63,547 nt of DNA, filler included, from Collodictyon triciliatum (GCA_043381765.1; 11 parts of 11 records of this genome joined end to end with filler, not necessarily neighbours in it); one strand, 5' to 3'. Positions 1-63,547 are shown, counted from the whole stretch's first letter. Numbers and translations: made by a program. The notes: generated by a model not told the origin, from the letters alone.

Positions 1-190
1 TTTTATCTTTTTTATCTTTTTTATCTTTTTTATCTTTTTTATCTTTTTTATCTTTTTTATCTTTTTTATCTTTTTTATCTTTTTTATCTTTTTTATCTTT
101 TTATTTTTATTTTTATTTTTATTTTTATTTTTATTTTTACTTTTACTTTTACTTTTACTTTTACTTATACTTATACTTATACTTATACTT
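1..190. repeat. Degenerating T-rich microsatellite (TTTTTTATC to TTTTTA to TTATAC)
   Basis: Tandem units directly visible at the start of the first piece. Confidence 0.95.
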
Positions 191-243
191 TTTGTATAGC
201 TATTCATCTATTATTGTCATTGGAAGTGTGAACGAGTTACATT

Positions 244-3200
244 ATGATTTTAATTCGTATTTTACTTTTAGACTTTGTTTTTCACATAAAATTCTTGGAT
301 GTCGGAGGGATGAATGAATCTTCGATTCACACGATGAAGAGCTATGGTCATACATCTTATGTCAGTAGTGTTGCTCTTACTTCTGATAGCTCAAAAATCG
401 TCTCCGGAAGCTATGACTGCACCATCAAAGTTTGGAATCTTTCCAACGGAACTCTGATTCGCACATTGAGTGGGCATAAAAGTCCTATTAATTGTGTGGC
501 TGTTACACCTGATGATTCAAGAATCATCTCTGGAGGTGATGACAACGATATCAAAATTTGGAACATATTAAATGGATTTTTTATACGCTCCCTGACCGGA
601 CACACTGGAAGTATTAATAGCATCGCTGTCACTCCAGATAGTTCTATGGTTGTTTCTGGAAGTGATGATAGTACAATCAAGATTTGGAATCTATTGTACG
701 GAACGTTGGTTCGCTCATTTAATGGTCATACTAGTGAAGTTTATAGTGTTGCTGTAACTCCAGATGGCTCGAGAATAGTTTCCGGAGGATATGATGAAAC
801 AATCAGGATTTGGAGCTTTTCTGACGGAGCTTTGCTTCGTGTATTGAAAGGGCATTCCTATATCGTGAATTGTGTAGTTACTACTTCTGATGGTTCAAAA
901 ATTGTATCCGGAAGCTTTGATAATACAATACGAGTATGGAATGTTTATAATGGAGCTTTGATTCACACACTAAACAATCATCTTGGCGATATTTATAGCA
1001 TCTCCGTTACTCCTGATAATTCGCAGATTGTATCAGGAAGTTGGGACAGAACTATCAAAATTTGGAATATTTCTGATGGAACTTTGGTCACAACCTTGAC
1101 CGGTCATTATAGTGTCGTCTATACTATTGGTATCACCCCTGACGGATTGAAGTTCATATCTGGAAGTGCAGATTGGACCATCAAAGTTTGGAGCCTTGCT
1201 GATTTAAAATTACTTCGCACGTTGACTAGCGATACGAATTATGTTTTTAGTGTTGCTATTACTCCAGATGGTTCCAGGATTGTTTCTGGAGGTGACGACA
1301 ACAAGGTCAAGGTTTGGGATGTTTTTTACGGAAAGTTGATTCACTCATTAGCGGGTCATAGTAATTGGGTTTGGAGTGTATTTATTTCTCCAGATGGTTC
1401 AAAAATAGTCTCTGGGAGCTGGGACAGAACAATAAAAGTTTGGAACCTCTCAGATGGAACTTTAATCAGAACTCTTATTGGGCACGTTGGTTGGGTAAGA
1501 GCTATCCATATTACTCCTGATAGTGCAAAAATTGTTTCTGGAGGAGATGACCGAACAATCAGAATTTGGGATTTATCAAGTGGGAAAATGATTCGTTCAT
1601 TAACTGGCCACACAGGGTATATTTCTAGTCTGGCGATTGGTTTTGATGGTTCAATCATTTTTTCTGGTGGCTATCGAGAAATAAAGCTTTGGAATCTCTT
1701 GAACGGAACTTTAGTTCGTACATTGACTGGACATGTTGGTGATGTTACCAGTATTTCACTCACCTATGACAGCTCAAGAATCGTTTCTGGGGGTTATCAA
1801 GATATCAGAGTTTGGAACACAACAGACGGGAATCTAATTCAAACGCTACATAACATGAATACTTGGGTTTGGGGTGTCACCCTGACTCTTGATGCCGCCA
1901 TGATTATTTCGGGAATGGATGATGGCTCAATAAAAATTTGGAATCTTTCTGACGGTGTTTTGATTCGAACGTTGACAGGTCATAATAGCTCTGTGAACGC
2001 TGTCGCTGTAGCTAATGATAGTTCAAAAATCGTGTCTGGAAGTGGAGACAAATCTATAAAAATCTGGGGGCTCTGTTTGGGTGGATACTTTTATGACCTG
2101 GATTCAAAATCATGCAAAATATGCACCCCAGGTAGCTACAGTAGCATAGGGAGTTCATCTTGTTTGCTTTGCCCAGCTGGAACATTTAACCCATCTTCCG
2201 CTTCAGATGGTATAGAATCGTGCATAAAATGCCCAGCGGGAACATACAATCCATCTGTCGGTTCAAAAATGCTGGAATCATGTATAAAATGTTCGGCCGG
2301 TACATACAATCCAACAAATGGCCAAAGTATAAATTGTACCTCGTGTCCGACCAGAACTTACAATCCAGAAGTAGGTCAAACAAAATGCATTTCATGTGGG
2401 AGTGGATGGAATGGAGGAATAACTGGATCTACATCTATAAATCAGTGCTTGTGTCTTCGTTCAACCTATTTGGATGGAGAGTCCAAACAATGCAAAGACT
2501 GTCCAACTGGATTTGTATGTGATGGGAGTAGTAATGTAAAAGTTCAATCAGGCTTTTGGAAAGCCCCTAACTACGAGGGACAATACATCTCATTTAAGTG
2601 TTTCAATGAAGCTGCCTGCGTTGGTGGAAACAACACATGTGCTGAAGGATATACGGGAGTTTTATGTGGTGCATGTGAAAAAGGTTACGGAAAAATGGGA
2701 TACTTTTGTACCAGATGCTCATCTAAACGAACAAATGGGTTTTTAGTTTTCATGAGTATTTGTCTTCCGACAGCTTTTGTTTTTTACATGATAGAGCAAT
2801 CAAAAGAGCCCAAATCTGAAAATATTCAAACACTAAAAACACTTGCGACCCATTTTCAGATCTTGTCATATCTAGCCAACTTTGATGTTAATTGGAGCGT
2901 AATAATTTTTTCAATTATGAAAATTCCAGCCCTTTTTTCGTTTACGCTATCCTTTGACAATTACACGACTGATTGTCAATTTGACATCAATATTTACGAC
3001 AAAGTTATATGCTATGTTTACACCACTCTTTATGGTGGCTATTGTTTTGTTGGCAATATTTTTAAAGATTATATGGAAATTAAAATATAATCAAATTACG
3101 AAAGGTGATATTTCTTTTCATAACCTCGTCCAAGAATTTATCTTTTCCTTGCTTGTCATGTTGTTTTTTGTCCACCCGACGATTACCTCGTCGATTTCTA

Positions 3201-61000: not shown

Positions 61001-62652
61001 CGTGTCTGGGAATCAACCACAGGTTACCCGTTTAGCACGCTCCTGATTTATTATTAAAATATATACAAGCACGACTCACTTTTGCAAGTTCAGATGTACT
61101 CTCACATCAATGGCAGTTTTGTGTTTCATGTACTGCCTGAAAATGTATAACATATGACCTTCGCTATATCGTGTTGATATCCCCCAGCAAAATGTATCAG
61201 AGAGTTTTCACATGATGATAGCGTTTGCTCGTTCGACTTATCCAACGATGATTCGTTGATAGCAAGCGGAGGGATGGACAGGAATGTAAATGTCAATATC
61301 AACATATCCATTACTATAATACTTTTTTAAAGTAATTAATAATAATTAGATAGAAAACAGATATACATCCTCTGTTACAGTAATCAATGTTCATATTTAT
61401 CTAAACAATTGTATCCATGTTTACAAGGTTCGAATTTGGGATATCCTCAAAGGCGTTTGTGTGAAAATGTTCAGAGGTAATCATCTAATTACTCTCATTG
61501 AAGAATGTTTTCCTTTTTTTTTCTTTTTTTCCTATTCGTTGCATAATCATTAATCATTTCTCAGGCCACGACAACTGGATAAAATCTGTGCGATTCTCTC
61601 CTGACATGAAATATGTGATATCAGCGGGACTGGACCACAAGATTTTCATTTGGGATTTAAAGTATACTATCCAAGAGTAAATAATAACGAATTTTCTTTA
61701 TTGAGTTTTGTGATTTTGAAGAAACTCTTTAATCAAACTTGTGAATTTGACATCTTTAATCAAATTGAAGTGGGGATGTGACTCACCCACATAAGGTTCT
61801 GGAAGGACACGAAGATTATGTTATGGATTTGGATGTATACCCGCCAAATCGATTACTTTCAGGTTCTTTTTTCTGGAATCCATTCGGAAACACCATTTTA
61901 AAACTTTGATAGTAATAATAAAAATAAAAAACCAAAACAAAGGTCATATATAATCATATTTAATTTATATTTACAAATCTCATCGCAAACTTTCTTATTT
62001 GATTCCTCTGACTGTTGTCCCTTGACTCTAGTTTCGCGGGATAGTACGATCAAGATGTGGTCCATTGAAGATGGTTTTTAATGTTTATTTGACACAGACT
62101 TGCAAATTTAAGCTCTATAGTCAAAATAACGTGCATATTCTTTTTTTCACAGGAAAGCTTGATTTTTCCCTTCAACTGCAACAAAACTGGCCGAGTACCG
62201 TGCGTTTTGCATTTGACGGGAGGTATCCTTTGTTCTTGACGTACACATTCATATAGAAATCAAACGTTGGTGGTTATGCAATTCAATCTTGTAACGTTTA
62301 CATGTGATGCATCAGACTCTTTGCCGTGGGCAACCATGATAACACTATCCGCCTGTATGAGACTAGAACTGGGAAGATTCTAAGACAATTGAAGGTAGGA
62401 TATTGTTGGGAGATTCAAGATCGCAATTCTTAAAATATTCTCCATGCCAAGCATAATTTGTTTCTAAAATGCAACAACTGTTGATAGATTCAAAATGATG
62501 GGATTCAGTCTATGTGTTTCTTGACAGCAGAGTCCCTCTTGTGTGGGACTTCAAGTGGTTCTATACAGGTATATCTATATAATCCCACAACTCTTGTTTC
62601 ATCAATCCCGTACGACAACATACAGAAAAAAATATTGAAAGAGAGTTTGTAA
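58031..62652 (+). CDS. WD40-repeat protein with an uncharacterised N-terminal region (ends approximate)
   Basis: C-terminal exons include LSASFDKSIRIFD, GHKSIVTCAKF, SFDHTVRVWE, GHDNWIKSVRFSPD...GLDHKIFIWD and GHEDYVMDL. Confidence 0.8.
62223..62315 (+). other. Candidate U12-type GT-AG intron (93 nt)
   Basis: Perfect GTATCCTTT donor and in-frame splice FDGR|LFAVG, but only an imperfect branch-like sequence (TCTTGTAAC). Confidence 0.5.
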
Positions 62653-63382
62653 AGATGTCGAAGTCTAACATTTTTTTGATAATATTTTTCTTGTAATAAA
62701 CCCAAATCCCTCCTCGGAAATCAAAGTTGCTTCCATTATGGTTATCTGACCTGCCCCAAAATCCGACCACCAAGGAATGAAAAAGGAATATAGCCTCTGT
62801 TTGCACTCCACAAAGTATACGCACCAAAAAAAAAAAAAAAAGAGACAAAGATTACCATTACGCATTATCAGTAGAATGGCAATACTAATGGGTAGATATT
62901 CATGAATCAAACATACTCAGATATGCCTTGTATCAGTCTCCACTTCTAACACTATCACATGTTTATATGCTACACTCACCAACATCAGAGTGATTAAGTT
63001 CACCTTCACCTCCTTTCCAAAATATCAAGCATCTTAGTAAATAAAGGAGTTTTGGCCGTGGGCGCGCAAATATTATATCGAATGGGTTCAGTTTCATCAA
63101 AATGACATCGCCATGGACTCGTTTTAATAACACCATGAATACCCAATCTGTGGCTTATTATTCGATATTTTTTGTGTTACTCTCTTCGCTTCAGTTTGCT
63201 TTGTTTAATTTAATTCGTTTTATTTTATTTTTGTTGGATTTACTTTTATTTTTATGGGATCGAATCGGTTGTGAATTTCGGCGGTTAAATTCGTGTGGAA
63301 AAACACTCAAAACCAAACGTCACCAACAACGAAAATCACTTCCCGGCGACTCTGATCGCAGAGACCTGGTCTCGAGCTTTAT

Positions 63383-63547
63383 CTCTTTTCCTTCTTTTTC
63401 GTTTCTTCTTTTCTTTCTTTTTCTTCTTTTCTTTTCTTTCTTTTTCTTCTTTTCTTTTTCTTCTTTTTCTTCTTTTTCTTCTTTTTCTTCTTTTTCTTCT
63501 TTTTCTTCTTTTTCTTCTTTTTCTTCTTTTTCTTCTTTTTCTTCTTT
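63383..63547. repeat. (TTTTTCTTC)n microsatellite
   Basis: Directly visible at the window end. Confidence 0.95.

Follow-up and report, generated by a model that had tools for sequence, protein, structure and literature searches.

Minor (U12-type) introns appear over-represented in a small sample of a protist draft genome

Minor, or U12-type, introns are more frequent than usual in the DNA described here, a stretch of 63,547 bases (the window) made up of 11 unlinked pieces. This excess is real within the sample. The window appears to be drawn from the draft genome of a protist rich in introns and microsatellites, a few percent of whose introns would be minor, about ten times the usual share; this reading is given a probability of roughly 0.55. 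For comparison, minor introns make up less than 0.6% in every surveyed eukaryote but Physarum polycephalum, according to the available part of one survey (PMC10639083).

The pieces run from 5,692 down to 5,678 bases each (about 5.69 kb) and are joined by artificial N44-TTAATTAATTAA-N44 spacers. They follow one another as records in a draft assembly sorted by size. A first-pass annotation of the same DNA had already described them as size-sorted and unlinked, and the piece lengths and spacers bear this out.

Four predicted introns are supported by the proteins that they interrupt, and three further sites are weaker candidates. Lengths are in nucleotides (nt).

20162-20279, plus strand: U12-type AT-AC intron 1 of an ARIH1-like RBR E3 ligase gene, 118 nt, phase 2 (protein-supported)
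20380-20533, plus strand: U12-type AT-AC intron 2 of the same RBR gene, 154 nt, phase 0 (protein-supported)
54682-54815, minus strand: U12-type GT-AT intron of a Fab1/PIKfyve gene (CCT-like domain), 134 nt, phase 2 (protein-supported)
62223-62315, plus strand: GT-AG intron with a perfect U12 5' splice site in a LIS1-like WD40 gene, 93 nt, phase 2 (protein-supported)
30246-30510, minus strand: GT-AG U12-type intron candidate in a multi-pass membrane protein gene, 265 nt, phase 1
8909-8962, plus strand: possible AT-AC U12-type intron, 54 nt, phase 0
43687-43794, minus strand: ATATCCTTTC site in an attractin-like Kelch gene; the candidate AT-AG model needs a 15-nt exon at 43809-43795

The 5' splice site /RTATCCTT is present with all eight bases at 20162, 54815, 62223, 30510, 8909 and 43794, and with six of the eight at 20380. 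At 20162, 20380, 54815 and 8909, a branch-site motif of the form YTTRAY is found 10-12 bases upstream of the 3' end; it is not seen there at 62223, and at 30510 it occurs only at -22. The termini are AT-AC at 20162, 20380 and 8909, GT-AG at 62223 and 30510, and GT-AT at 54815. Removal of the four supported introns restores conserved coding sequence, namely IBR (20162), RING2 (20380), the Fab1 profile (54815) and a WD40 blade (62223). Their phases are 2, 0, 2 and 2 in the order listed. All four appear to fit the sequence definition of a U12-type intron, except that the branch site of 62223 is weak.

The clearest case can be found in the RBR gene. Its first intron, 20162-20279, has the 5' site ATATCCTTTC and the branch site ATCCTTAAC, with the branch A at -12, followed by N10 and a 3' end AC. 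Judged by its sequence, it is an unambiguous, textbook AT-AC U12 intron. The exon upstream (20025-20159) matches positions 2-51 of 65 of the Pfam IBR family (E-value 3.3e-9) and has ARIH1 as its best PDB match, and the exon after 20279 supplies the rest of the IBR pattern, C-x2-C...H-x4-C. An alternative AG acceptor at 20286 was rejected, the resulting peptide being non-IBR.

The second intron of this gene, 20380-20533, has the 5' site ATATCCACTC (ATATCCAC) and the branch site GGCTTAAC, with the A at -10, then N8 and AC. Its removal connects ...AKAEKW to MSSFCKKCPKCGVQIEKNM (MSSFCKKCPKC..., the start of RING2). The open reading frame (ORF) at 20525-20680 gives a weak match to IBR_1 (RING2, KKCPKC; E-value 0.0058). 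No in-phase GT donor is found in the exon before 20380. The AT-AC model is preferred to a canonical rival because ATATCC, CTTAAC and AC occur at the right spacing. PDB searches with two short exons of the RBR gene gave chance matches only.

The Fab1 intron, 54815-54682, has the 5' site GTATCCTTGA and ends in TATCTTGAC-TATCATAT, with the branch A at -10 and a 3' end AT. On either side of it, the exons match Fab1 homologues and positions 160-212 and 238-300 of Cpn60_TCP1. The exon before the intron ends ...KVLLLRCPI-GA|GTATCCTTGA, and the homologues go on IEY-x3-EN-x-L. A GT-AT end at TATCTTGAC-TATCATAT is the only reading that yields this continuation. Scored on a profile of 23 homologues, the GT-AT model reaches 100.8 bits, against 85.9 for the other GT-AT frame and 77.0 for a canonical GT-AG site 25 bases past the branch site, which was rejected. 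With the GT-AT model, the next intron (54629-54555, minus strand) is then canonical, GTATGA...TTTAG, and in phase.

About 15 introns occur in 5.7 kb of the Fab1 gene, as mapped with its closest homologue (P0072). The sequence ...EY|P is present at the same Fab1 codon in 4 of 87 short genomic Fab1/CCT fragments of other organisms (P0070, P0076, P0176 and P0218). Because this is how read-through of GTATCC would appear, the intron position at the Fab1 exon end 54816 seems to be shared beyond this genome. The position of the Fab1 U12 intron looks old.

In the LIS1-like gene, the intron 62223-62315 starts GTATCCTTTG and ends CAG. Its removal gives ...VRFAFDG-R-LFAVGNHDNTIRLYE, a regular WD40 blade, and the exon after 62315 has weak WD40-family Pfam matches (E-value 0.008). 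It would be U12-type by its 5' site only. A second intron of this gene, 61662-61770 (plus strand), starts GTATACTATCC and ends TCTTTAAT-N10-AG. It has a U12-like, if degenerate, 5' site and, at -12, a branch motif close to the consensus, and may be a weak or converted minor intron; it is not included in the U12 count.

The three other candidates are less firm. The site at 30510-30246 begins with GTATCCTTTG and contains both TTCCATAAT, with an A at -22, and TTTGA, with an A at -14. Its removal connects open frames of 46 and 109 codons, with a GTTTGT...TAG intron upstream and a GTAAGT donor downstream. A Pfam search with both of its exons gave no match. It is a probable U12-type intron.

The intron 8909-8962, which is possibly U12-type, has the 5' site ATATCCTTTC and the motif CTGTTGAC with the A at -10, followed by N8 and AC. 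Taking it out removes an in-frame stop and connects 41 codons, counted from an ATG at 8789, to 55 more. The surroundings are relatively G+C-rich, with long ORFs on both strands, and the region shows no homology in Pfam.

At 43794, a U12 intron start is possible. A single major (U2-type) intron, 43882-43687 on the minus strand (GTATAA...ATATAG), gives the same frame with no micro-exon. Within 43687..43794, no branch-site-like motif is seen at 9-15 bases. A TCCTTAAA...AC end that could be paired with 43794 sits within a 74-codon ORF, VDIGDGSSLKLYTG, which is read as exon; this ORF matches no Pfam family.

The first-pass annotation had claimed three strong U12 introns and one candidate, of the classical ATATCCTTT/TCCTTAAC type. 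It gave no coordinates, and all four ATATCCTTT sites were therefore examined: 20162, 28512 (minus strand), 43794 (minus strand) and 8909 (plus strand). Of these, 20162 is the textbook case, 28512 is exonic, 8909 is only possible, and 43794 has the U2 rival described above. The proposed branch site TCCTTAAA did not hold, lying in the ORF read as exon. The classical pairing fits 20162-20279 and no other intron; the branch word TCCTTAAC has a single exact occurrence, at 20262. The fourth intron of the annotation was probably 20380-20533. Its list was also incomplete, in that the GT-type introns 54815-54682, 62223-62315 and 30510-30246 had been missed.

Evidence for an excess that does not depend on gene models can be provided by counting 5' splice-site words. 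Expected counts were taken from 100 dinucleotide-preserving shuffles of the window. RTATCCTT is seen 12 times against 5.74 +/- 2.39 expected, and RTATCCT 27 times against 15.70 +/- 3.96; in neither case does any of the 100 shuffles reach the observed count. The GT form GTATCCTT, which the first-pass annotation did not use, occurs 6 times against 1.92 expected (reached by 3 of 100 shuffles). The AT form ATATCCTT alone is not significant over the window, with 6 against 3.73 expected (15 of 100 shuffles).

By reading of each site, the 12 RTATCCTT occurrences divide into four intron starts, two weaker sites (8909 and 43794) and six that are not introns, being coding, antisense or within U2 introns. 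Six chance sites are close to the 5.74 expected, which leaves the six others as candidates. The non-intron sites are as follows.

2652: antisense to a gene
41353: antisense to a gene
34509: no ORF
10794..10996, minus strand: GTATCCTTTT site, judged to be a chance match within a U2 intron; the 18-codon upstream ORF lacks an acceptor or ATG, and a GTTTGT...CAG intron ending at 10794 connects the flanking coiled-coil exons in frame
28505..28512, minus strand: ATATCCTT within an LRR exon (NDNQISFLPPRISMLNNL), read N-Q-I-S-F-L-P-P, the LRR consensus; the ORF 28363-28746 matches Pfam LRR_8
33209..33216, minus strand: GTATCCTT within a protein-kinase exon, read ...DESLVSFLSEVALV before a GTAAGC donor; the neighbouring exons match Pfam Pkinase

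All 15 of the 15 RTATCCT sites that lack the eighth T are likewise non-introns (antisense, exonic, at the 3' end of a U2 intron, or with no ORF). For instance, ATATCCT at 51742 is exonic like 28512 and reads K-I-S-Y-L-P, and RTATCCT at 55124 sits at the 3' end of a U2 intron. The LRR codons N-x-I-S-x-L-P give rise to ATATCC three times.

A loose in-frame splicing test was not informative. Each site was joined to a downstream ORF through TT[GA]A placed 9-14 bases before AG, AC or AT. Ten of the 12 RTATCCTT sites pass, but with 104 permuted control words so do 470 of 692 sites (p = 0.21). Since so many control sites also pass, ORF continuity alone is weak evidence, and for this reason 30510 and 8909 are ranked below the four protein-supported introns.

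The share of minor introns depends on how many introns the window holds. A gene finder trained on the window in three rounds (14 supported gene regions, 38.9 kb) was used for a rough intron count only, and it placed 62, 75 and 83 U2 introns in the successive rounds. When permissive it makes too many predictions on both strands; when strict it mis-models the kinase and RBR genes. Together with the mapping of Fab1, it suggests roughly 90-130 introns. The 100-150 given in the first-pass annotation is thus plausible, if rough.

The U2 introns themselves show an unusually loose 5' splice site. Many that are supported by homology begin GTT (GTTTGT, GTTTTT, GTTACA), at 54629-54555, 55226-55113, 45064, 30700 and 11065, all on the minus strand. 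Position +3 is T or C in 28 of 83 modelled U2 introns, and +5 is G in only 38 of the 83.

Out of about 90-130 introns, the four supported ones amount to about 3-4% and all seven candidates to about 5-8%. Known densities are 0.276% in human, 0.272% in Rhizophagus, 0.316% in Priapulus and 0.554% in Basidiobolus, the last being the highest outside Physarum in the part of the survey at hand (PMC10639083). At a rate of 0.55%, at least four U12 introns among 90-130 would be expected with a probability of 0.0017-0.0062, and at least five with 0.0002-0.0009; at 0.3%, at least four would have a probability of 0.0002-0.0007. With only three introns the excess becomes unconvincing (0.014-0.036 at 0.55%). 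These values disregard that the window was flagged after the fact for these introns. The suggestion of an expanded minor-intron complement made in the first pass is therefore upheld in part, as an elevated share within this sample (four supported introns and up to three candidates, P 0.0017-0.0062); a genome-wide expansion is only hinted at.

A number of points weigh against a genome with a few percent of minor introns. The sample, about 63 kb, was singled out because of these introns, and regression to the mean is expected. The intron denominator is rough, the gene-finder models being visibly wrong in both directions. The candidates are known here from DNA alone, and their splice junctions are predicted. 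An Rfam search of the window gave 0 matches, hence no minor small nuclear RNA (snRNA) gene was found in it. Individual introns have weaknesses as well. A consensus branch site was looked for near the 3' end of 62223-62315 and none was seen, the best branch motif of 30510-30246 lies only at -22, and the support for 30510 and 8909 consists of ORFs. At 20380 only six of eight 5' site bases agree, and the canonical rival, built by the gene finder, replaces 20380-20533 with introns 20321-20419 and 20484-20551 via an exon that contains A14. The preference for the AT-AC model draws in part on its linker, which is presumed to resemble that of human ARIH1 in length and W/K pattern.

Finally, three features recall Physarum. 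In assembly style the window, where scaffolds end in simple repeats, gaps occur and introns measure about 100 bases, is like the Physarum genome, described in the available part of PMC4758236 as having simple repeats everywhere, gaps from di- to tetranucleotide repeats, a mean intron of 100 bases and 55,119 scaffolds. As in Physarum, a classic branch site is missing from most candidate introns. Introns with a perfect RTATCCTT site number 4-6 of about 110, a share that exceeds the 2.1% of Physarum (3,648 of 175,198) by a factor of only about two.

It can accordingly be asked whether the source of the scaffolds is Physarum polycephalum or a species very close to it, in which case the excess would be the massive U12 expansion already published. 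There, 20,899 of 175,198 introns, or about 12%, are U12-type (Larue, Elias and Roy, bioRxiv 10.1101/2020.10.12.336362), a number that "dwarfs all other known instances" in the accessible text of PMC10639083. As far as the available parts of these two sources go, a percent-level U12 share has been reported for no other organism. The GT-AT class seen at 54815 is also known from Physarum, where it makes up 17% of non-canonical U12 introns (bioRxiv 10.1101/2020.10.12.336362). If this were the source, the finding would be correct but already published.

The splicing signals nevertheless make a Physarum origin unlikely. In that species, GTATCTTT-AG introns outnumber GTATCCTT ones, and in 42-67% of such introns the A of a TTTGA motif stands 9-12 bases upstream of the 3' site (bioRxiv 10.1101/2020.10.12.336362). 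In the window, the +6T variant RTATCTTT is unenriched (10 against 10.99 +/- 3.31 expected), GTATCTTT occurs at 1 site only, and the RTATCTTT sites examined on coding strands are exonic or non-coding. TTTGA is present at -9 to -12 in none of six introns, which would have a probability of about 0.016 at a 50% rate; the nearest motifs are CTTGA at -10 (54815), GTTGA at -10 (8909) and TTTGA at -14 (30510). Among the 3,648 introns of Physarum whose 5' site is perfect, just 20 have the sequence CCTT[GA]AC (bioRxiv 10.1101/2020.10.12.336362), yet 20162 carries the classic CCTTAAC. Of the six introns here with a perfect 5' site, this is the one that has it, unlike Physarum, and the other five lack it, as in Physarum.

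Relaxed scans for the Physarum type (RTATCY...TTTGA-N8-11-AG/AC) gave matches that, where examined, lay inside exons, and these were rejected.

6731-6305: coding, GCP C-terminal domain (by eye from the ORF translation; no Pfam match)
28512/28440-28244: coding, LRR
45088-44787 and 44944-44787: coding, Kelch
36082-35554: coding, RGS
2868-2997: membrane-protein exon (by eye)

In addition, no protein more than 61% identical appeared in protein searches, the best matches having 25-59% identity. The U12 signals thus look classical rather than of the transformed Physarum kind, and most likely belong to a lineage other than Physarum polycephalum.

A different explanation is that the genome has an ordinary U12 share of 0.5% or less, and that the window is a lucky draw through old conserved genes (ARIH1, PIKfyve, LIS1-like) combined with selection after the fact. 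The sample comprises only about 63 kb with 16-18 genes, singled out because U12 signals were seen. A good 5' site with a well-spaced branch site is found in only three introns (20162, 20380 and 54815), two of them in one gene, and a chance of 0.014-0.036 for at least three at 0.55% is not rare over many scanned windows. The seemingly old position of the Fab1 intron is also what would be expected of a retained ancestral U12 intron. The odds are nonetheless against such a draw, which is given a low probability: the RTATCCTT excess (12 against 5.74, reached by 0 of 100 shuffles) owes nothing to gene models, and with four protein-supported introns and one to three candidates the probability is at most 0.006 for four or more, and at most 0.0009 for five or more, even at 0.55%.

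That several candidates are instead U2-type introns starting GTATCC by chance, or not introns, so that the true count is one or two, is very improbable: 62223 and 30510 have no branch site at 9-15 bases, 20380 has its canonical rival, 8909 lacks homology and U2 donors are loose (GTT donors are common and +5 is G in only 38 of 83), but GTATCC followed by TTT is estimated at about 1.6e-4 per intron (hand arithmetic on the composition of the modelled U2 donors), no canonical alternative at 54815 agrees with the homologues, and 20162 is unambiguous.

The reading that remains preferred, a protist genome rich in minor introns, can be made more specific. Tentatively, a non-Physarum lineage would have several percent of U12 introns with classical /RTATCCTT 5' sites and relaxed YTTRAY branch sites, and would tolerate non-canonical 3' ends such as GT-AT. 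From the established mechanism of U12 splicing, U11 and then U6atac would pair with the rigid 5' site /RTATCCTT, and U12 snRNA with the short branch site YTT(A/G)AY. The 3' cut would be made about 10-14 bases past the branch adenosine, largely regardless of the last two bases. A cut set by branch distance would account for the AT-AC introns, the GT-AG introns and the one GT-AT intron alike.

The richness could have arisen by independent gain, by an early Physarum-type expansion in a relative, or by exceptional retention of ancestral minor introns. Minor-intron gain is regarded as almost non-existent in the available parts of two sources (PMC10639083; bioRxiv 10.1101/2020.10.12.336362), and no further minor-intron-rich lineage was evident among the papers listed, from 2021 onward, on minor-intron gain and U12. 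If the lineage is not Physarum, it would be a second, differently built minor-intron-rich genome, with classical rather than transformed signals. It would then test whether a massive minor-intron content needs Physarum-style remodelling of the U12 snRNA and branch site or works with classical signals. It would also add a case against which the transposon-insertion model of U12 intron gain could be compared, and be a further system in which to ask if minor splicing is inherently slow.

The remaining content of the window describes the genome more generally. G+C is about 36% overall, and short internal N gaps occur in 3 of the 11 pieces. Microsatellites, among them (AAGAA)n, (AGAGA)n and (ATT)n, stand at the start or end of most scaffolds and also make up some introns, which suggests an assembly broken at repeats. 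Examples are:

5795-6019, 28947-29260, 40104-40416, 47296-47690 and 58200-58500: long microsatellites at scaffold ends

About 16-18 genes are present, as found by a Pfam scan of 450 of the 486 stop-to-stop ORFs of at least 48 codons and of targeted exons. The Pfam list includes:

WD40 x14, Cys-rich and membrane protein, nearly intronless
gamma-tubulin complex protein
long interspersed nuclear element (LINE)-like element
ARIH1-like RBR ligase
FG-GAP protein
LRR protein
TKL kinase
RGS protein
dynactin p62
attractin-like Kelch protein
ELM1-like protein
LRR-PP2C protein
Fab1/PIKfyve
LIS1-like WD40 protein

In our judgement, this gene set (TKL kinase, LRR-PP2C, RGS, Kelch/attractin-like, ELM1-like) resembles that of an aerobic amoeboid protist. 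Protein searches with RBR, Cys-rich membrane, kinase and Fab1 queries gave nothing above 61% identity. The RBR exon returned no candidate relative, the best match of the kinase exon is 53% identical, and matches to the Fab1 exon reach at most 61%. Named matches to the Cys-rich membrane region, at 25-45% identity, include Anaeramoeba, Andalucia and Carpediemonas. Metagenome scans for related DNA found no relative.

Three of the other regions have features of their own. The first, 232-3925 (plus strand), is a gene of about 1,250 codons that is nearly free of introns and encodes 14 WD40 repeats followed by Cys-rich repeats (PF07699) and a multi-pass membrane region. The proteins closest to its product, 25-45% identical, are from Anaeramoeba flamelloides, Andalucia, Carpediemonas and metagenome contigs. 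Since its two long ORFs (232-3087 and 2921-3925) overlap but differ in frame, a short intron or frameshift near 3035-3104 must connect them. The second, 11585-13400 (minus strand), has a G+C of 46% against about 35% around it and long ORFs with an Exo_endo_phos match. It looks like the endonuclease end of a non-long-terminal-repeat (LINE-like) retrotransposon, cut by the scaffold end. The third, 24260-26539 (plus strand), holds a 485-codon ORF with six FG-GAP_2 matches, an in-frame stop at 25715-25717 and a 273-codon ORF with (RSRSKVRT)n-like repeats and a membrane anchor at its end. Either the stop is removed by a short intron or the two ORFs are separate.

Compared with known systems, the window shares with Physarum a percent-level U12 share, perfect RTATCCTT sites that mostly lack the classic TCCTTAAC, GT-AT termini, short introns and a repeat-littered, fragmented assembly. 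It differs from Physarum in having no +6T enrichment, no TTTGA at -9 to -12 in six introns and one classic CCTTAAC. The observed share, about 3-6%, is also below the roughly 12% of Physarum; with all candidates it is 4-7 of about 90-130 introns (3-8%), a count from which degenerate 5' sites accepted by the Physarum classifier may be missing.

Another comparison is provided by Blastocystis sp. subtype 1, which has 253 minor introns, 77% of them AT-AC, with a mean of 42 bp and a preference for phase 0, according to the available text of PMC10639083. As in Blastocystis, minor introns here are short and the AT-AC share is high (2-3 of 5-7, one candidate being 54 nt). Unlike the introns of about 40 nt in phase 0 found there, however, those of the window are 54-265 nt long, and the gene content is judged to be that of an aerobic amoeboid protist.

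In their signals, the introns resemble the classical U12 introns of animals, plants, and minor-intron-rich fungi and amoebae. Among the amoebae, Protostelium aurantium has 265 minor introns, in the part of the survey at hand (PMC10639083). The density in the sample is about 6-20 times higher than in such classical systems, the branch sites are mostly weaker than the textbook form, and one intron is GT-AT. Shared with them are /RTATCCTT, YTTRAY 10-12 bases from the 3' end, both AT-AC and GT-AG termini, a phase bias away from 0, and a location in old conserved genes.

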